The translations under genes and the position numbers were made by a program. DNA of 64,000 bases from Okeania sp. SIO2F5 (GTDB taxonomy: Bacteria > Cyanobacteriota > Cyanobacteriia > Cyanobacteriales > Microcoleaceae): positions 105,619 to 169,618 of the forward strand of contig NZ_JAAHGU010000008.1 of assembly GCF_010692685.1 (NCBI RefSeq), read 5' to 3'. This document shows positions 30,190 through 38,629 of this stretch, piece after piece (positions within the stretch are counted from its first letter, which is position 1; every line of letters starts with the position of its first letter). The notes beneath the pieces were generated by a model, which was not told the DNA's origin, did not search any database, and saw only the letters and a program-made list of their open reading frames with translations.

Positions 30190-31260
30190 ATGAAAATATC
30201 AGCAACAGAAATAGAAAATACAAATCCTCGTTTAGGATTGACAATTGGAGATCCTGGGGGCATAGGACCAGAAATAATTCTTAAGGCTTTAGCAGACCCT
30301 ACTGTTACAGAAAATTGTGACTTGACAATTATAGGCAGTCATCGCATTTTGCAACAAACCTATCAAAAACTATCTCAACTCTCGAAAAAAACTCAATCGC
30401 AACAATTACTTGTCAAATGGGAAAATTTAAAAATTTTAGATGTAGAGTTTAATGGAAAATTAGAAAATATTTTTCCCGGCAAAGGTAATGCTGTGAGTGG
30501 GGAAGCTAGCTTTTGTTTCATGGAAACAGCCATTGCTCAGACTTTAGCTGGAAAATTTCAAGGTATTGTTACTGCTCCTATTTCCAAAACTTGCTGGCAG
30601 ATGGCTGGTCATAAATACCCTGGTCAAACTGAACTTTTAGCAGAAAAAGCAGGAGTAAAAAAATTTGGGATGCTATTTTTTGCGCGATCGCCCCACAGTA
30701 ATTTTGTACTCCGCTCTCTTTTAGCTACCACACATATACCATTATGTCAAGTCCCAAAAGCTTTAACGCCAGAGTTGCTGAGTTGGAAATTAGAGTTACT
30801 AATAGAAAGTTTACAAAAAGATTTTGGGATTTCTCGGCCAAAAATTGCTGTTGCTGGTTTAAACCCTCACAGTGGAGAAAATGGACAATTAGGAACAGAA
30901 GAGCAAGATTGGCTCATCCCTTGGTTGGACAAACAATGCGATCGCCGACCGGACATAGAGTTAGATGGGCCAGTGCCACCGGATACTATGTGGGTCAAAC
31001 CAGGTCAAGCTTGGCTAGGTTTACCAGCTAAAACTTATGATGCTTATTTGGCGCTATATCATGACCAAGGCTTAATTCCAGTTAAACTAATGGCTTTTGA
31101 TTTAGCAGTGAATACTACCGTTGGTTTACCATTTGTTCGTACCTCTCCTGACCATGGTACAGCTTTTGATATTGCGGGTCAGGGTATTGCTGATGCGACG
31201 AGCATGAAAGCAGCAATAAAGTTAGCTAAAGAATTGATATTACAAAGAACTTATTCATAG
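30190..31260 (+). CDS. pdxA: 4-hydroxythreonine-4-phosphate dehydrogenase.
   Basis: Motifs [17 protein letters not shown] and HDQGLIP. Confidence 0.85.
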
Positions 31261-31769
31261 CAAAAGTAGCCAAATTAATAGAATTGTTTCTGCAATAGTT
31301 GACTTAGTGAATCTACAATCTAAAATATACAAATAGGAGGTATAAGAAAGCTGACAAATTTGATTGTCAAGCAAATATACCTACTAATACCATTTTAGTT
31401 AGCTCTCAGGGGTGAGAAGAAAAGATTCTTACTTCAAAATAAGTCTATTAAGGCATGAGTTAATAAACAATAAAAGTAAGCATTTCCTACGGAATGCTGG
31501 GCAAACAGTTATTAGCATTTCCTACGGAATGCTCCGCAAACAGTAATCAGATGCATGAACTTATGCAAGTAATAACTGAGGTTAGGTTATAGCCAATTTC
31601 ATTAATGAATTTTAATTCTCAAATGAATTTTAATTCTCATTGGTGGATAATTCCTTTCTAGTTATGATAATTAGTTAATAGCAAATAGCTGATAGCTGAT
31701 AGCTGATGTCTGACTGCTGAATGCTTACCAATAAAATGGTAAAAAAATCAAAATTTATTTGAGAAAACT

Positions 31770-32570
31770 TTGAAAACTATATCCTTTGCTATCCAGGGAA
31801 AAATGGATTATGAAACTTTAGGAAAAGCAGGAGGAATTAGCACAACTCCTGGTACACCCCAATGGGCACTTGCTATTAAGTTAAAACTACAATCTGTTCT
31901 GAAAAAAGATGTAGTTGTTAATGGGGAACAATTAAAAGCATGGCGTGAATTAATGAAACAACCAGCAGCTTATCAACAATTACTTGATGAGCAAGGAAAA
32001 GCATTTAATAGTTATGAAGAATTATGTCGTGCTCAACCACCTTATGGATTAGGTTGTGAAGCTAAAGAAATTGAAGAATTAATTAGTAAATTAGAATCAA
32101 CTGAAACAAAAACAGTCGATCTACCGGAAGACCCATTAAAAGATTTAGGAAATCCATCAAATTACTTTCATAAATTTTCTAAACTTGTGGAAGCTTGCTC
32201 AGATAATCAAGCTTTAAATGCACCGAAAATCGGGGAGATTTTAGATTATGCTCATAGCACTGCTCAATTATGGAGAAAAAGATGGGAACATTTAGGATGG
32301 TTAGAACAATCAAAAAGTAGTGGGAGAGGTTTTTACCAAATTACTGAATCAGGAAAAAATGCAGTTAAAAATTGGTTAGAGCAACAGCCAGAAGGTAAGT
32401 TGAATCAAGAACTTTGGGTAGTAGTTCCTAAAAATCCTCAAAAGGCTGCAGAAAAATTGATTAAGTCGTTTAAGGGTGAAGATTTAAGAGAGATTTACAA
32501 ACTAATTGGAGAGTCTTTTAGTCAAGAATTAACTGTATTTCATTCAGATTCAGGTATGGAAAAAAATTAG
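31770..32570 (+). CDS. Hypothetical protein with C-terminal winged-helix-like segment (cassette gene 1).
   Basis: TTG start at 31770, with an alternative ATG at 31803. The segment ...LWRKRWEHLGWLEQSKSSGRGFYQITESGKNAV is wHTH-like. No family recognized. Confidence 0.45.
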   Translation: MKTISFAIQGKMDYETLGKAGGISTTPGTPQWALAIKLKLQSVLKKDVVVNGEQLKAWRELMKQPAAYQQLLDEQGKAFNSYEELCRAQPPYGLGCEAKEIEELISKLESTETKTVDLPEDPLKDLGNPSNYFHKFSKLVEACSDNQALNAPKIGEILDYAHSTAQLWRKRWEHLGWLEQSKSSGRGFYQITESGKNAVKNWLEQQPEGKLNQELWVVVPKNPQKAAEKLIKSFKGEDLREIYKLIGESFSQELTVFHSDSGMEKN

Positions 32571-33114
32571 TATTTAGTTATTAGCAGATTACCTAATCTA
32601 TCAATGTCAGGGTTAACAGCATAAATTAAGAGTTTAATTTTTTTATCCTTCAATGTAATTTAATGCTGAAAAAATAAAAGGTTGTTTTTGAGGAGATTAT
32701 TAATGTTAAAAGTAGTCCTGAACTGTATGGAATAAGTAAATTATTGAATCAATGAAAATAGGAGTTTTTCTTCTGAGTAAATGTTCCTTATAAAATAGCT
32801 ATAGGGATTACTTTTAACGGGGGTATTTTGAGTGAAATAAATTGTGTCATACTTGAATCAAAATTTAACTTATCCGAAAATTAATAAATAAGTAATAAAC
32901 AGCCTCTACTCCCATTAAAAATTTAGGTATATTGGTAGTTTAAATTTTGTAGAGATACTCTATTCTAAGTTGTTATTTAAGTTATCAGTTAGCCTCCTGC
33001 TCCCTCTACTAATTTTTCTTCTTCTTTCTTTCCTCCTGACTCCTGACTCCTAAATAATTAAGATTAATATCACACACTAATTCACCAACGCCGTAAATTT
33101 TATAAGAGGAACTA

Positions 33115-33690
33115 ATGACAGAGCTTTCCACTGAACAATTGCTTTATTTGCTTTACACATTTGCTTATTCAACAGAAGGAACTGTTACTAGAAGTACAGT
33201 TAGGAATCATTTATCTAAAAAACGCCGCCCCAATGCAAAACAGGTTTGTGAGAGTTTATGTGAGCTGAAGTTATTGGAGTCTCCTAAACGAGGGAGAATT
33301 AAAGTTACTGAGATGGGAATGAAAGCTCTAGTTCTTAATCTTCAAACAACGGAGTATAAATTTAGGTCTAACAAAGGACCTAAAATTTTAAATGCTCTGA
33401 TGGCTTGTTTAAAATTAACAGCAAAATATAATCAGATAAATTATCAAAATGAGGATATGGATTTTGAGACTTTTGTAGATAAGTTTAAAAAGCTTTACCT
33501 TGAAGAAAGGAGGCGTCAAGAATTGGAAGGTGTTGTGGCTATTCGTAGTAAAGAAATTTGCCAAAAGTTTAGGCAAAATAATCATATTTCTGAATTGCTA
33601 CTAGAAAAATATTTTGAGCAATTGAAATCTGATGGTTTAGTATTTGCGGTACAAGAAAACAATAAAGAATTAATTCAATGGGTGAACTAA
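33115..33690 (+). CDS. Hypothetical protein with N-terminal winged-helix-like segment (cassette gene 2).
   Basis: The segment ...CELKLLESPKRGRIKVTEMGMKAL follows a pattern similar to gene 1. The stop is 3 nt before the gene-3 start codon. Confidence 0.45.
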   Translation: MTELSTEQLLYLLYTFAYSTEGTVTRSTVRNHLSKKRRPNAKQVCESLCELKLLESPKRGRIKVTEMGMKALVLNLQTTEYKFRSNKGPKILNALMACLKLTAKYNQINYQNEDMDFETFVDKFKKLYLEERRRQELEGVVAIRSKEICQKFRQNNHISELLLEKYFEQLKSDGLVFAVQENNKELIQWVN

Positions 33691-33693
33691 ATT

Positions 33694-35508
33694 ATGCCGG
33701 AAGATGCAGGAAAAAAAAGATATATTAGAAAGTTTTTACAGCAAATTCAACCAGGAGAAGGTTATGTGGAAAATATTTGGGTTGAACGTGATGTAAGATT
33801 ACCAGGAAAAGAGGGTGAAGATGATACTACAACTACAGCTGAAAGTTTATCTGGTAACTCTTCAATATCAAATATAACGGAATTGCTTCGAGACGATCTT
33901 AAACATACTTTTGATGATAGATCTTTTACATTTAGATTTGTGGCGGCATTTCTTGGTAGTGGTAAAACTTCCCTATTAACTTATTTGCATGAATTAACAA
34001 CAACTCAGTCAAATTATGAAAAACATTCTGTAGTAATTCAGTTTCCACTTTCTCATTTACGGACAGTTGGTAGTAGTCATAATTTTAGCATTAAACTTTA
34101 CTGTTATATTTTAGGAGATACTTTTTGGCAATTAATACATAATCAAAATTTATTGCCAGATGTAAAAGAAGTTGCTAAAAACATTCTCGAAGAATTTGAT
34201 GCAGGGTCATTATTAAATACAGGAACTAGAGAAGAGATAAAATTAAATCCTTTTAGGTCAAAATTTAGTAAATTTTTCGCAACAAGTGAAGTAAATTTTG
34301 TTGAATTATTTTTTGATGTGATATCTCAAGTCACAAAAGTAGACCCCAGATTTACTTTTGTCTATCTAACAGATGAATTAGATTCATTAGAAAAATTTCA
34401 ACAAGAAATAGAAGAAACTAGAGTAATTTTTAGAGCATTAATCAAGCAAGCTGCTCAGAAATTTAGAAGAAGTATTCCTCTGCTAATTTATTTGGTAGGT
34501 ACATCAGATAATGTCAGTTCTTTAATTGAAGGAGACTCTGTATTAAAAAGTTTAGTCAAAAAGTCAACGATTAATCTTAGTTTAGGTTCTGATAAAGAAT
34601 TTATGATGATTAAACAAGAGATAGATGAAAGAATTAAAGGAGCATATAAAGGATATAAAAATTTTAATAATGCTTGGCAAGAAATTCAGAATATACCTTT
34701 GAGACCAGCTAAAAATTTTAGAGAATTTTGTCAATATTATTCAGGAAAAGTTCTAGAAATACATGAAAGGTATTTTGCCGAAGCAGAAGAGCAGAAATTT
34801 GAAGGTGATGCTCGTGAATTAGTCAAAGCAGAATGTCAAAAAAGGTGGGGAAAATATTTACAACAGAGAGTATACACATTATCAACAGTGGAAACTACAA
34901 AAGTAATTCAAGGCAAAAAAACAGGACAAAAGCATGCCTTAGATTGTTATGTAGAATTGCTTGATAATAATAGAGTAATAGCTAGAACTTTTGGTGAAGC
35001 TAAAAATTATAAATTGATTATTGAACACTTGGATGATTTTAGTCGATGGTTAGATGATTTAGGATTTAATCCATACCCTTCAGAAAATACTCCTCCGGAC
35101 TTAGCTTTTATGATTGCTCCTTCATGTCCAGAACGTCTTAAAAGAAAGCTAGAGTTACAAAATATTGAATTTATTCAAGTAGATAAGGTTATTGATAAAA
35201 AATCAAGTAAATTACCAAATTCAACAAGTTCAACTATAGAGAAAATTATTGAAACAAAATCAACTTCATCCTCACATTCGACAAGCTCAACTGCTGTTAA
35301 TATCAATACAGCGAACGAAGCAAAATTAATAATTGCTTTTAGAGGAACAAGTATTAAGAACAAAACTATTCAAAAGCTGCTAAATAATAGAAAAAGTAAT
35401 CCTTACAAAGACTTAAATAATCTGGTATCCGATCTTAAGTTTAGCGATAATGTAAAAGCTAAACTTCAAATTAAACTCGATAATGAAGAAATTAGTTTTT
35501 CTGATTGA
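33694..35508 (+). CDS. P-loop NTPase of unknown family with C-terminal ComEA-like helix-hairpin-helix tail (cassette gene 3).
   Basis: Walker A AAFLGSGKTSLL, Walker B FTFVYLTDELD, possible sensor LVGTSD. The C-terminus (NINTANEAKLIIAFRGTSIKNKTIQKLL...LVSDLKFSDNVKAKL) resembles an HhH DNA-binding motif. Confidence 0.55.
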   Translation: MPEDAGKKRYIRKFLQQIQPGEGYVENIWVERDVRLPGKEGEDDTTTTAESLSGNSSISNITELLRDDLKHTFDDRSFTFRFVAAFLGSGKTSLLTYLHELTTTQSNYEKHSVVIQFPLSHLRTVGSSHNFSIKLYCYILGDTFWQLIHNQNLLPDVKEVAKNILEEFDAGSLLNTGTREEIKLNPFRSKFSKFFATSEVNFVELFFDVISQVTKVDPRFTFVYLTDELDSLEKFQQEIEETRVIFRALIKQAAQKFRRSIPLLIYLVGTSDNVSSLIEGDSVLKSLVKKSTINLSLGSDKEFMMIKQEIDERIKGAYKGYKNFNNAWQEIQNIPLRPAKNFREFCQYYSGKVLEIHERYFAEAEEQKFEGDARELVKAECQKRWGKYLQQRVYTLSTVETTKVIQGKKTGQKHALDCYVELLDNNRVIARTFGEAKNYKLIIEHLDDFSRWLDDLGFNPYPSENTPPDLAFMIAPSCPERLKRKLELQNIEFIQVDKVIDKKSSKLPNSTSSTIEKIIETKSTSSSHSTSSTAVNINTANEAKLIIAFRGTSIKNKTIQKLLNNRKSNPYKDLNNLVSDLKFSDNVKAKLQIKLDNEEISFSD

Positions 35509-35515
35509 AGTAACA

Positions 35516-36445
35516 AAAGTCAAAGAGATACTTGCCATGGAATAAATCATTTATATCTCTCCACCCTTCCACTACTAAAAATTTTCTAGGCACCTCTATA
35601 AATTATCCGAAAAAATCAACAATATTGAGATTTTGCTAGTGTGACAATGACCAAAGTCAAAGAGATACTTGCCATAGAGTAAATCATTTATATCTCTCCA
35701 CCCTTCCACCACTGAAAATTTTCTAGGCAACTCTATAAATTATCCGAAAAAATCAACAATATTGAGATTTTGCTAGTGTGACAATGACCAAAGTCAAAGA
35801 GATACTTGCCATAGAGTAAATCATTTATATCTCTCCACCCTTCCACCACTGAAAATTTTCTAGGCAACTCTATAAATTATCCGAAAAAATCAACAATATA
35901 TATATGGAGTAAATCATTTATATCTCTCCACCCTTCCACCACTAAAAATTTTCTAGGCAACTCTATAAATTATCCGAAAAAATCAACAATATTGAGATTT
36001 TGCTAGTGTGACAATGACCAAAGTCAAAGAGATACTTGCCATAGAGTAAATCATTAGTCAAAGAGATACTTGCCATAGAGTAAATCATTTATATCTCTCC
36101 ACCCTTCCACTACTGAAAATGTTCTAGGCACCTCTATAACTTATCCAAAAAATTCAACAATATTGACCAAAGTCAAAGAGATATTTGTCATAGAGTAAAT
36201 CATTTATATCCCTCCACCCTTGCACCACTGAAAATGTTCTAGGCAACTCTAGAACTTATCCGAAAAATTCAACAATATTGAGATTTTCCTAATGTGACAA
36301 TGACAAAAGTCAAAGAGATATTTCCCATAGAGTAAATCATTTATATCTCTCCACCCTTCCACCACTGAAAATTTTCTAGGCAACTCTATAAATTATCCGA
36401 AAAAATCAACAATATTGAGATTTTCCTGATGTGACAATGACAAAA
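35516..36445. repeat. Tandem array of about 7 units of ~137 bp. Units 3-6 carry indels.
   Basis: The unit is aaagtcaaagagatacttgccatagagtaaatcatttatatctctccacccttccaccactgaaaattttctaggcaactctataaattatccgaaaaaatcaacaatattgagattttgctagtgtgacaatgacc. The array begins 8 nt after the stop of the 604-aa NTPase. There are no ORFs and no unique spacers. Confidence 0.85.
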
Positions 36446-36517
36446 GTTAGACGTTCTTTACTTGATAAAAATCCAATCAACTTCTAAGATTAAATCAACC
36501 ATTCACAAATCAAAAAT

Positions 36518-38629
36518 ATGAAATATCCAAAAGAACCTCTAACATATCCCATCACCCACAAAACAGACATAGTAGAAAATTATCATGGTGTAGAAGTGGC
36601 AGATCCCTATCGATGGTTAGAAGACCCTAATTCAGAAGAAACTCAAGAGTGGGTAAAGGCGCAGAATGAAATTACTTTTAATTATCTCGCAGAAATTTCC
36701 GAAGGAGAAAACATCAAAAAACGACTGACTAAAATCTGGGATTATGAAAAATATAGCGTTCCTTTCAAACAAGGCGATCGCTACTTTTATTACAAAAATG
36801 ATGGTTTACAAAATCAAAGTATTTTATACACTTTGCCTACTCTTGATGCCGAACCAAAAGTTTTGATAGACCCTAATAAATTATCAGAAGATGGAACAGT
36901 CGCTCTTTCGGGAATTGCTATTAGTAAAGACGGCAAATTAATCGCTTATGGTATTTCTAATTCTGGTTCAGACTGGCAAGAATGGCGGATTAAAAATATT
37001 GAGACAGGAGAAGATTTACCAGATGTTTTGCAATGGATAAAATTTAATGTACCAGCTTGGAAAAATGATAATCAAGGTTTGTTTTATAGTCGCTACGAAC
37101 AACCACAAGCAGGAGAATTAGAAGAAACTAATTATTTACAAAAAATTTACTACCATAGTTTAGGTACTCCTCAAAGTGATGATGTACTAATTTATGAAAA
37201 ACCAGAGCGAAAAGAATGGAGTTTTAATTGCTATGTCACGGAAGATAGTAAATATTTAGTTATTACAGTTTGGCAAAGTACAGACCGCAAAAATTTGGTT
37301 TTTTATCAAGATTTAACTATAGAAGATGCGCCGATAGTAGAACTAATTAGTGAGTTTGAAGCCGAATATCGTCTAATTGATAATGATGATAATATCTTTT
37401 GGTTTGTCACAGATTTTGATGCTCCGAAAAGACGAGTTATTGCCATTGATATTAATAATTCTCCATCTCCTTCTTTAGTCACAGGAGAAAATAAGGATAA
37501 ATGGCAAGAAATTATTCCTGAAACAACAGATACATTGAGAGGGGTAGGCACACTTAATAATCAGTTTGTTGCTTTCTATTTAAAAGATGCTCATACTCAG
37601 GTAAAAATATTTAATCTTGATGGTTCCCCAGTCAGAAATGTAGACTTACCCGGAATTGGTTCTGTGGGTGGTTTTTATGGTAAACGTCATGACACAACCA
37701 CATTTTATAGTTATGTTAGTTTCACAACTCCATCAACTATTTATCAGTACGATATGGTAAGTGATGAAAGTAAAATTTATCGCCAACCAACTGTAGATTT
37801 TAATCCTGATGAATTTGAAACCAAGCAAATTTTTTATAGTAGTAAGGATGGTACAAGTATCCCCATGTTTATTACTCATAAAAAAGGTGTAAAGCTAGAT
37901 GGCAATAGCCCAACTATTCTTTATGGATATGGAGGATTTAATATTTCTCTGACTCCCAACTTTTCTATTAGTAGATTAGTTTGGTTAGAGATGGGTGGGG
38001 TATATGCAGTTGCCAATATTCGTGGTGGTGGAGAATATGGTGAAGAGTGGCATAAAGCAGGGATAAAACAACAGAAACAAAATGTATTTGATGACTTTAT
38101 TAGTGCTGCTGAATGGTTGATTGAAAATAAGTGGACTTCATCGAAAAAATTAGCTATTACTGGTGCAAGTAATGGTGGTTTATTGGTAGGTGCTTGTATG
38201 ATTCAAAGACCAGAATTATTTGGTGCAGCTCTACCTGCAGTAGGAGTAATGGATATGTTACGTTTCCATAAATTTACTATTGGTTGGGCATGGGTTGCTG
38301 ATTTTGGTTCTCCAGATAATCCAGAAGAATTTAAAGCTTTATATGCTTATTCTCCTCTACATAATTTAAAGCCTGAAAAATCTTATCCTGCAACTTTAGT
38401 TACTACTGCTGACCATGACGACCGAGTTGTTCCAGCTCATAGTTTTAAGTTTATTTCTGCTTTACAAGCAGCCCATATTGGAGATAATCCAGTATTAATT
38501 AGAATAGAAACTAAAGCAGGTCATGGAGCAGGAAAACCTACTACGAAAATAATTGAAGAAATTACAGACGAATTTGCTTTTTTGCTGAGAAATTTTGAGA
38601 TTGAATTGCCAAAAAATTTTGGTAATTAA
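36518..38629 (+). CDS. Prolyl oligopeptidase (S9A family).
   Basis: Beta-propeller N-terminal domain. Catalytic GGSNGGLL serine motif. C-terminal Asp/His region. Confidence 0.85.
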   Translation: MKYPKEPLTYPITHKTDIVENYHGVEVADPYRWLEDPNSEETQEWVKAQNEITFNYLAEISEGENIKKRLTKIWDYEKYSVPFKQGDRYFYYKNDGLQNQSILYTLPTLDAEPKVLIDPNKLSEDGTVALSGIAISKDGKLIAYGISNSGSDWQEWRIKNIETGEDLPDVLQWIKFNVPAWKNDNQGLFYSRYEQPQAGELEETNYLQKIYYHSLGTPQSDDVLIYEKPERKEWSFNCYVTEDSKYLVITVWQSTDRKNLVFYQDLTIEDAPIVELISEFEAEYRLIDNDDNIFWFVTDFDAPKRRVIAIDINNSPSPSLVTGENKDKWQEIIPETTDTLRGVGTLNNQFVAFYLKDAHTQVKIFNLDGSPVRNVDLPGIGSVGGFYGKRHDTTTFYSYVSFTTPSTIYQYDMVSDESKIYRQPTVDFNPDEFETKQIFYSSKDGTSIPMFITHKKGVKLDGNSPTILYGYGGFNISLTPNFSISRLVWLEMGGVYAVANIRGGGEYGEEWHKAGIKQQKQNVFDDFISAAEWLIENKWTSSKKLAITGASNGGLLVGACMIQRPELFGAALPAVGVMDMLRFHKFTIGWAWVADFGSPDNPEEFKALYAYSPLHNLKPEKSYPATLVTTADHDDRVVPAHSFKFISALQAAHIGDNPVLIRIETKAGHGAGKPTTKIIEEITDEFAFLLRNFEIELPKNFGN

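Follow-up and report, generated by a model that had tools for sequence, protein, structure and literature searches.

A candidate two-gene defence pair of cyanobacteria with an ORC/Cdc6-like ATPase at the pdxA-prolyl oligopeptidase locus of Okeania

A pair of adjacent genes, called gene 2 and gene 3, was analysed together with its surroundings in a 64 000-nt stretch of the Okeania sp. SIO2F5 genome (RefSeq GCF_010692685.1, contig NZ_JAAHGU010000008.1, positions 105619-169618), referred to as the window. The host is Okeania hirsuta-like (Oscillatoriales, Microcoleaceae), and the nearest homologs of the window proteins were found in Okeania, Trichodesmium and Dapis, not in the Nostocales to which an earlier note on this DNA had looked for relatives. 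Window gene 3 was 100% identical to that of O. hirsuta PAB10Feb10-1 over the aligned segment. Three open reading frames (ORFs) were confirmed on the + strand between pdxA (30190-31260) and a prolyl oligopeptidase gene (POP, 36518-38629), both flanks being as named in the earlier note. Gene 1 (31770-32570) encodes 266 aa from a TTG start, or 255 aa if the ATG at 31803 is used. Gene 2 (33115-33690) encodes 191 aa and gene 3 (33694-35508) encodes a multidomain protein of 604 aa. The gene 2 stop and the gene 3 ATG are separated by 3 nt (AAC TAA att ATG CCG), as had been reported, and the distance between gene 1 and gene 2 was 0.3-1.4 kb in the window and the syntenic loci. The spacer between gene 3 and POP is filled by a 137-nt tandem array (35513-36447, no strand assigned). 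GC content (0.30-0.33) and GC skew were ordinary for the window and no base-composition anomaly was found at the cassette.

The conserved functional unit is gene 2 plus gene 3, two genes rather than the three of the cassette first proposed. Every intact gene 3 had a gene 2 homolog directly upstream, with a gap of nearly always 3 nt, and many cyanobacteria carried both genes without gene 1 and without the array. Full-length homologs of genes 2 and 3 (43-60% identity) were found in Nostoc, Planktothrix, Microcoleus, Tychonema, Lyngbya, Stigonema, Anabaena, Richelia, Heteroscytonema, Halomicronema, Acaryochloris, Chamaesiphon and others, and a remoter branch (33-36% identity) in Laspinema, Oscillatoria and Adonisia. 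The pair was present in about 70 cyanobacterial species (72 loci in 185 579 species genomes, counted with a scan built on peptide patterns that may miss some loci). An exhaustive profile search of 1.84 billion proteins returned 78 representative clusters, mostly fragments. No relatives of the pair were found on viral contigs and no copies on plasmid-like contigs. Outside the Okeania clade the neighbourhoods were otherwise unrelated, with CobN and a glycosyltransferase in Planktothrix and a zinc-dependent alcohol dehydrogenase (Zn-ADH) and a radical-SAM protein in Nostoc. Two complete pairs were present in Nostoc mirabile CHAB5784 (L019, L024); they belong to different Nostoc lineages of the family and were 55% and 52% identical to the query.

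No library model from Pfam, NCBIfam, PADLOC or PHROGs was matched over threshold by genes 1, 2 or 3, in agreement with the earlier remark that no family could be named. Profile searches of the PDB with gene 3, gene 2, the nuclease-like region of gene 3 and gene 1 gave no significant sequence match, and no description of the gene 2/gene 3 family was found in the searchable literature.

Gene 3 consists, in order, of an N-terminal region, an AAA+ ATPase of the ORC/Cdc6 clade with its lid, a PD-(D/E)xK-like alpha/beta domain, a disordered linker and a ComEA-like helix-hairpin-helix tail. The ATPase (residues 76-390, 33919-34863, + strand) has an AAA+ alpha/beta core and a helical lid, and its structural similarity was highest to ORC/Cdc6 members. 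The Walker A motif GSGKTS (residues 88-93, 33955-33972) and the Walker B motif YLTDELD (residues 224-230, 34363-34383), whose presence had been predicted, were invariant in the family alignment. The same alignment located a sensor-1-like LVGTSDN (residues 267-273, 34492-34512) and a sensor-2-like EGDAR (residues 370-374, 34801-34815) in the last lid helix; VGT (268-270) and EG[DN]AR (370-374) were invariant or nearly so in 37 sequences. EG[DN]AR is presumably the 'GDAR' sensor-2 signature of Orc1/Cdc6, and all four motifs are taken here as signatures of the ORC/Cdc6 clade. The Cdc6/ORC, AAA_22 and AAA_16 models of Pfam and NCBIfam were not matched above threshold by the window protein; sub-threshold AAA_22 and AAA_16 matches were obtained only with diverged relatives. 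Strand 2 and Walker B are separated by a large helical insert (about residues 119-216), at the position where ATPases of the ORC and BrxC types have their DNA-contacting insert (PMC12839542). In the AlphaFold2 (AF2) model no winged helix follows the lid; the winged helices sit on the separate gene 2 protein.

The alpha/beta domain (residues 391-497, 34864-35184, + strand) carries the invariant motif H414-x-x-D417...G434-E435-A436-K437-N438-Y439 (34933-35010, + strand). D417 and E435-A-K437 were invariant in the family alignment and in essentially all intact genomic copies. In the AF2 model the domain is folded as beta-beta-beta-alpha-beta (strands 413-424 and 427-436, helix 439-455, strand 470-475), with D417 and E435/K437 on adjacent hairpin strands. 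This modelled arrangement is that of a PD-(D/E)xK domain, a superfamily with an alpha-beta-beta-beta-alpha-beta core, and residues 391-497 are accordingly described as a predicted nuclease. Local Foldseek matches of about 100-125 columns, whose aligned query residues were not reported, were obtained to NucS (2vld, E 6.5e-3, probability 1.00), EndoMS (5gke, probability 0.99) and Cdn1, within a probability range of 0.92-1.00. They are taken as support for the predicted nuclease, short of proof. E370 had been considered as the first acidic nuclease residue and was dropped, as it belongs to the GDAR-type sensor-2 motif of the ATPase lid.

A Ser/Thr-rich low-complexity linker (residues 498-535, 35185-35298, + strand) follows, with pLDDT below 50 in the AF2 model and with variable length and sequence across the family. 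In several relatives a 48-57-nt tandem repeat, present about twice, encodes it (L004:7488-7600, L008:8533-8662, L006:8484-8594, L005:8485-8576), and the linker seems to evolve through repeat expansion and contraction. The tail (residues 536-604 plus the stop codon, 35299-35508, + strand) had been called ComEA-like. The resemblance extends over the C-terminal ~70 aa and all model matches were sub-threshold (T2SSK E 0.006, GspK E 2.4e-4 and, in relative P0245, HHH_3 E 0.0066). Four confident helices were modelled by AF2, the NINTA...G...R...L...L pattern was conserved ('VNINTA' start) and the GIG hairpins were degenerate. Some gene 3 homologs are labelled 'ComE-like' by JGI, and 'ComEA-like helix-hairpin-helix' is a fair description of the tail.

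Gene 2, the obligate upstream partner of gene 3, has two winged helices (about residues 1-80 and 140-191) with a helical linker between them, and a sub-threshold Mrr_N match.

Five members of the gene 3 family, of about 720-733 aa, end in an additional TIR domain (Pfam TIR_2; three were scanned, with E 1e-16 to 5e-22). The ExK element was lost in all five (GEAK changed to GGAR or GGCQ) and the Asp was replaced in four. D...EAK was kept by all close non-TIR full-length members (E below 1e-100). A gene 2 homolog was retained directly upstream of the TIR variants, with a gap of 1-2 nt (hhalign probability 100%; BLASTP E 2e-49). In one further family member the tail is replaced by a WD40 propeller. 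TIR effectors are activated by induced oligomerisation, as in Thoeris, Avs/NLR-like proteins and SARM1. The TIR swap therefore speaks for the D...ExK site as the effector of the main family and for the ATPase as an oligomerisation switch.

One TIR variant lies in an island (L085:1-12202, JGI metagenome 3300035685) beside a phage integrase, a ThsB-like TIR protein (191 aa) and a 685-aa TIR-LD_cluster2 protein; two TIR-GUN4 fusion proteins of ~350 aa and a ParA-like ATPase are also encoded there. Proteins in which TIR is fused to GUN4, a porphyrin-binding domain, have an unusual architecture. The 147 neighbouring ORFs of 31 other loci, surveyed without a control set and hence giving a qualitative picture, included MADS components (mad2, mad3, mad8), AriA, four phage integrases, seven Uma2 proteins, Gp49 and PemK toxins, along with many metabolic genes. 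These neighbours are suggestive of a defence-type setting for the pair. PADLOC matches in the relatives came only from TIR or WD40 parts, besides weak ones to mad8 (1e-4) and PifA (1.6e-5). In the syntenic loci examined no integrase or transposase adjoined the cassette (the rest of the window was not scanned for such genes). A mobile-element reading was dropped, given this result and the lack of viral-contig relatives.

At least 12 copies of the pair were decayed or internally deleted. Frameshifts or truncations were found in L007/L009, L028 and L067, recurrent internal deletions joining an N-terminal piece of gene 2 to a C-terminal piece of gene 3 in L017, L052, L073, L074 and L076, and fragments in L058, L065, L077 and L082. 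In O. hirsuta PAB10Feb10-1 (L013:7007-7330, window ~34700-34775), gene 3 equals the window gene to residue 361 and is then interrupted by a duplication of ~125 nt and a premature stop. The duplication holds an inverted segment (GGAAAAGTTCTAGAAATAC...GTATTTCTAGAACTTTTCC palindrome). The gene may be truly disrupted, or the contig misassembled at this point; its pdxA match, too, was ~57 nt longer than expected.

Decay of this kind, together with the patchy distribution and the presence of toxin-antitoxin (TA) genes near some loci, would also fit an addiction module. Its toxin, a nuclease or TIR enzyme, would be gene 3, and gene 2 would bind DNA as its antitoxin or as an autorepressor, the whole being selfishly maintained whether or not it helps against phage. 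The layout, a small DNA-binding protein coupled upstream of a larger enzyme with a toxic-type effector, agrees with it. In mechanism such a module shades into abortive-infection defence, and the two cannot be told apart cleanly. It is nevertheless held to be distinctly unlikely: plasmid-like and viral contigs were free of copies, the effector contains a large conserved ATPase switch that is unusual for type II TA toxins, and the pair has resided long and stably at one chromosomal site in Okeania.

The residence at this site was examined by comparing genomes of the clade. The order petM-pdxA-gene 1-gene 2-gene 3-POP was syntenic across Okeania, Dapis and Trichodesmium, and the cassette is thus not an insertion between housekeeping genes as had been supposed. 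Conservation of the locus in relatives without mobile hallmarks, which the earlier note had regarded as evidence against its own proposal, was observed within the Okeania clade; it rules out a recent insertion there. It is compatible with a defence role, since the alleles at the locus are hypervariable and recombining. Comparison of O. hirsuta with Okeania SIO1I7 gave identities of 99% for an NmrA-like protein, 94% for pdxA, 93% for gene 1, 86% for gene 2, 60% for gene 3 and 95% for POP. Identity of gene 3 was 52-57% in other Okeania genomes. The marine-clade gene 3 alleles were monophyletic and their tree was at odds with species relationships, the O. hirsuta allele grouping with Trichodesmium and Dapis and not with other Okeania.

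The divergent block takes in the second winged helix of gene 2 (its C-terminal one) and, in gene 3, the N-terminus, the AAA+ core (46% identity) and the insert (33-50% in sliding windows). The N-terminal half of gene 2 and the tail of gene 3 (83%) matched the flanks in divergence. The ratio of non-synonymous to synonymous substitution rates (dN/dS) was 0.26-0.53 for gene 3 versus 0.08-0.18 for the flanks. Synonymous divergence (dS) was 0.7-0.96 in the 5' block (about fivefold that of the flanks), 0.15-0.19 in the flanks and 0.08 at the 3' end. As the dS of the 5' block is far above that of the flanks and the 3' end, the locus is a recombination mosaic of anciently diverged alleles, a pattern typical of conflict genes. 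The joint divergence implies that the C-terminal winged helix of gene 2 and the ATPase of gene 3 co-evolve, and physical contact between them may therefore be supposed.

The same comparisons bear on another explanation, in which the pair is a chromosomal DNA-metabolism factor, for example an ATP-regulated repair or recombination endonuclease like NucS/EndoMS. The Foldseek likeness of gene 3 to these enzymes and its DNA-binding tail agree with this explanation, as do the housekeeping neighbourhoods (PriA/CobN in Planktothrix, recurring Zn-ADH/radical-SAM in Nostoc), the stable syntenic site with monophyletic alleles in the Okeania clade and the strict conservation of catalytic and ATPase motifs at 50% overall identity. 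A pair found in only ~70 species genomes is harder to reconcile with it. So are the frequent independent decay and internal deletions, the two divergent copies in one genome, the TIR and WD40 swaps with a TIR-rich island around one member, and the alleles that are hypervariable within a genus, with raised dN/dS between conserved flanks. Patchiness, decay, domain swaps and hypervariability are not typical of a core repair function, and this explanation is judged unlikely.

Gene 1 homologs were found only in Okeania, Trichodesmium and Dapis, with at least 61% identity. An HTH or winged-helix-like segment (about residues 149-200) is present, with sub-threshold matches to HTH_23 in 12 of 12 members and to Mrr_N in 10 of 12. 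The pattern that genes 1 and 2 had been said to share is a generic winged-helix wing motif; no sequence similarity was detectable between the two proteins (BLASTP E = 40) and paralogy was rejected. Gene 1 evolves at the rate of the flanks (dN/dS 0.14) and was retained where the pair had decayed (L065). Nothing functionally ties this lineage-restricted gene to the gene 2-gene 3 pair.

The tandem array noticed directly downstream of gene 3 was recovered by TRF, a repeat finder and a unit profile. It has a period of 137 nt and about 7-8 copies (four full units, the others being truncated to unit positions 1-113, 25-137, 1-40 and 6-116). It extends from 5-8 nt past the gene 3 stop to ~70 nt short of the POP start codon. 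The unit was found only at this locus (searches of the window, 88 loci and one metagenome scan, in which 4 of 4 hits were the same locus). It was present in O. hirsuta, Okeania SIO2C9, SIO1I7, SIO2B3 and SIO3I5, Dapis M172 and M229 and the metagenome-assembled genome (MAG) MO_207, with any gene 3 allele class. With the unit profile it was absent from T. erythraeum, from two Okeania (SIO2F4 and 1238230), from Dapis M126 and from all non-marine genomes searched. The unit was 78-90% identical over nearly its whole length across species, and other spacers aligned over only 8-40% of their length. The window and L014 share the same truncated-unit junctions. The array was still present where gene 3 is deleted or truncated (L017 with 11 units, L058, L082). 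On metagenome contig JAAUYJ010124195.1 (L082:1-1927), gene 3 is cut to its first ~75 codons and the array directly abuts the remnant. Since it persists beside truncated gene 3 copies, the array is not an obligate partner of the pair, unlike the iterons of initiators.

Several explanations of the array itself were tried. A tandem small-RNA array like NsiR1 was rejected: Rfam gave nothing on the region at either the gathering or a permissive threshold, promoters and terminators were not conserved between species and fold z-scores were only -0.1 to -2.8. Each full unit junction is spanned by an 11-codon ORF (e.g. 35644-35682, ATG ACC AAA GTC AAA GAG ATA CTT GCC ATA GAG TAA, MTKVKEILAIE), which in other species is seen in most units as MTK..EIFA.E. 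It was rejected as coding because the frame stays open in L028 and because synonymous changes are not favoured among its substitutions. A match of TTATCCGAAAA between the array unit and the gene 1-gene 2 spacer was set aside, being not conserved in sister genomes and probably due to chance. The same probably holds for 32866-32880 (TAACTTATCCGAAAA) in that spacer, which matches the unit at 14 of 15 bases in O. hirsuta only. In Dapis sp. BLCC M172 the pdxA-gene 1 spacer contains another tandem repeat (L005:3848-4301, 193-nt period, 2.3 copies, 94% matches), and intergenic tandem arrays seem common around the locus in this clade.

Archaeal Orc1/Cdc6 initiators are encoded beside their origin repeats. 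A plasmid- or phage-derived replication/partition module made up of genes 1-3 and the array had been the other proposal of the earlier note. In such a module the 137-nt repeats would serve as iterons or origin repeats, to be bound by the ORC-like ATPase and the winged-helix proteins. The ATPase of gene 3 is structurally closest to the initiators ORC and Orc1/Cdc6, winged-helix proteins are encoded alongside it, and an unusually conserved repeat unit begins 5-8 nt past its stop. The pair occurs without the array in Planktothrix and Nostoc WHI (TRF), and the unit was not found by profile in T. erythraeum, several Okeania and other, non-marine loci. Conversely, the array outlives gene 3 in L017, L058 and L082. 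No viral relatives, no GC-skew switch, no composition anomaly and no adjoining integrase or transposase were found at this syntenic chromosomal site, and a replication initiator has no use for an effector of nuclease or TIR type. An origin of replication was dropped on account of the missing GC-skew switch and of the array being unlinked to the pair in other genomes, and the proposed module is regarded as extremely improbable.

A more local role was also weighed, in which the array is a functional third component in Okeania and Dapis, as a DNA platform or a processed non-coding RNA bound by, loading, titrating or regulating the pair. Considered in its favour were the restriction of the unit to this locus, its constant position 5-8 nt past the gene 3 stop and a conservation about like that of coding sequence. 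This role is very unlikely. If it were true, the locus would pair an ORC-like protein of bacteria with a repeat array of its own next door on which it acts, a kind of system for which there is no described counterpart. Gene 1 and the array are local neighbours in the marine Okeania/Dapis/Trichodesmium clade, not demonstrated parts of the module.

The small repeats upstream of gene 1 (31479-31707, no strand assigned) had been described as a palindromic cluster. The repeats are there, mostly as short direct repeats and not palindromes: a 35-nt unit present twice with an internal hairpin in each (31479-31548), an 18-nt unit present twice (31604-31639) and a run of three AGCTGAT heptamers (~31686-31707, read by eye). 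This spacer is conserved only in the closest relative and no tie of its repeats to the module was found. CTCCTGA-type heptamers occur in the gene 1-gene 2 spacer (~33036-33053, within 33000-33055). Both kinds of heptamer resemble the short ones repeated in tandem in filamentous cyanobacteria. In an uncultured Oscillatoria sp. MAG (L068:1-3184), a gene 3 homolog (53% identity) is followed ~430 nt on by POP (68%). This extends the gene 3-POP adjacency beyond the Okeania/Trichodesmium clade, and the adjacency may be ancestral in part of the Oscillatoriales.

From these data, genes 2 and 3 probably form a cyanobacteria-restricted two-gene conflict system, most likely an anti-phage or anti-mobile-DNA defence. 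An uncharacterised defence or abortive-infection module had been one of the options in the earlier note; for genes 2 and 3 it is the best-supported one, and gene 1 and the array are unsupported as members. It is carried by the folds and motifs, the strict coupling and co-occurrence of the two genes, the effector swaps, the patchy, decaying and hypervariable evolution and the partial association with defence islands. ORC/Cdc6-like ATPases, fast-evolving winged-helix domains and effector nucleases recur together in anti-invader systems (PMC12839542). The pair is an uncharacterised candidate defence pair and not a categorically new kind of system.

In the proposed mechanism, gene 3 would be an ATP-dependent switch of the ORC/Cdc6/BrxC type, binding DNA via its helix-hairpin-helix tail and possibly via the helical insert of its AAA+ core. 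Gene 2 would be a DNA-recognition adaptor or regulator, made in fixed ratio through translational coupling and docking on the gene 3 ATPase by its C-terminal winged helix. The trigger would presumably be a feature of invading or replicating foreign DNA. Upon this trigger, gene 3 would oligomerise on DNA in its ATP state, as ORC, Cdc6, TnsC and BrxC do. The oligomer would bring the PD-(D/E)xK domains together and DNA would be cleaved. In the sister subfamily with a dead nuclease site, the C-terminal TIR domain would act instead as the oligomerisation-activated effector.

Several observations weigh against a defence system of this kind. The core proteins, gene 2 and gene 3, were matched by no PADLOC model. 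Many loci, including the window, lie among ordinary metabolic genes without mobile hallmarks, and the neighbour survey is of the qualitative sort noted above. The syntenic locus and the monophyletic alleles fit long vertical residence in the Okeania clade. With dN/dS below 1 overall, relaxed constraint and diversifying selection are inseparable. The five TIR variants probably form one clade, and the swap may have been a single evolutionary event. For the nuclease, sequence profiles of the region gave nothing significant, the assignment combines a motif, a predicted topology and local Foldseek matches of unreported coordinates, and the two remotest relatives (P0289, P0298) have GEFT in place of GEAK.

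If the pair is a defence system, it would be a compact, cyanobacteria-specific addition to the immune modules built on ORC/Cdc6-like AAA+ switches (BrxC, DUF499, DUF6079). Sensor/switch, nuclease and DNA anchor would be combined in one 600-aa protein with a small adaptor, which would be far more tractable than BREX for the study of how ORC-type ATPases convert the recognition of DNA into the activation of an effector. The natural nuclease-to-TIR swap provides a built-in test of activation by oligomerisation. The hosts include bloom-forming and ecologically important filamentous cyanobacteria (Trichodesmium, Planktothrix, Nostoc, Microcoleus, Okeania), in which phage defence is poorly charted and bears on ecology and genetic tractability. 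With its hypervariable block enclosed by near-identical flanks, the Okeania locus is a clean natural case of recombination-driven allele turnover at a fixed site. The 137-nt array, constrained and confined to this locus, is a conserved non-coding element still without an explanation.

Among known systems, BrxC/DUF499/DUF6079 of BREX and BREX-related systems are closest to the pair in ATPase type and parts (AAA+, winged helix, alpha/beta domain). BrxC is a protein of ~1200 aa (AAA+, winged helix, alpha+beta, winged helix and dimerisation domain), whereas gene 3 is half that size, with the winged helices on the separate gene 2 protein and with its own D...ExK motif and helix-hairpin-helix tail; the structural similarity is limited to the ATPase. 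The PADLOC BrxC models were not matched by gene 3, and the BrxC_BrxD Pfam model was matched at or below cut-off by remote relatives only. In the loci with gene tables examined, PglZ, PglX, BrxA, BrxB and BrxL were not found beside the pair, the neighbours in the window and the gene tables being pdxA, gene 1, POP, CobN, a glycosyltransferase, ADH and a radical-SAM protein. PglZ and PglX were also absent from the top 25 neighbour families in either library.

With Orc1/Cdc6 and eukaryotic ORC/Cdc6, gene 3 has the AAA+ fold and motifs in common. It differs from them in that gene 2 provides the winged helix in trans, in place of a C-terminal one in cis, and in the added nuclease-like domain and tail, or TIR domain. 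There was no significant sequence match to these initiators, the distribution is patchy and accessory and no origin association was found. In iteron or origin modules the repeats belong to the initiator, whereas the 137-nt array neither co-occurs with nor depends on gene 3 across genomes. NucS/EndoMS and Cdn1, the latter a nuclease activated by cyclic oligoadenylate (cOA), have in common with gene 3 the local Foldseek matches, at aligned coordinates that were unreported, and D...ExK on an adjacent beta-hairpin. Gene 3 has no sequence-level relationship to them and has neither the NucS N-terminal domain nor a CARF domain.

McrBC, a type IV restriction system, couples nucleotide-dependent AAA+ assembly on DNA to a PD-(D/E)xK nuclease and has a separate DNA-recognition domain. 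The likeness to the pair lies in the AAA+ motor, the PD-(D/E)xK nuclease and the separate DNA reader. In contrast to McrBC, gene 3 belongs to another AAA+ clade and has its nuclease fused to the ATPase, the DNA reader being the separate gene 2; no McrB or McrC match was seen in the structure searches with gene 3. STAND NTPases of the Avs/NLR-like type have an NB-ARC or NACHT module with a winged-helix or helical arm and a C-terminal repeat sensor; gene 3 does not show this make-up, nor a match to NACHT or NB-ARC models. Avs3, NOD2 and plant NLRs are nevertheless among its structural matches, and the logic is the same: an NTPase oligomerisation switch is combined with interchangeable PD-(D/E)xK and TIR effectors and, in one member of the family, with WD40.

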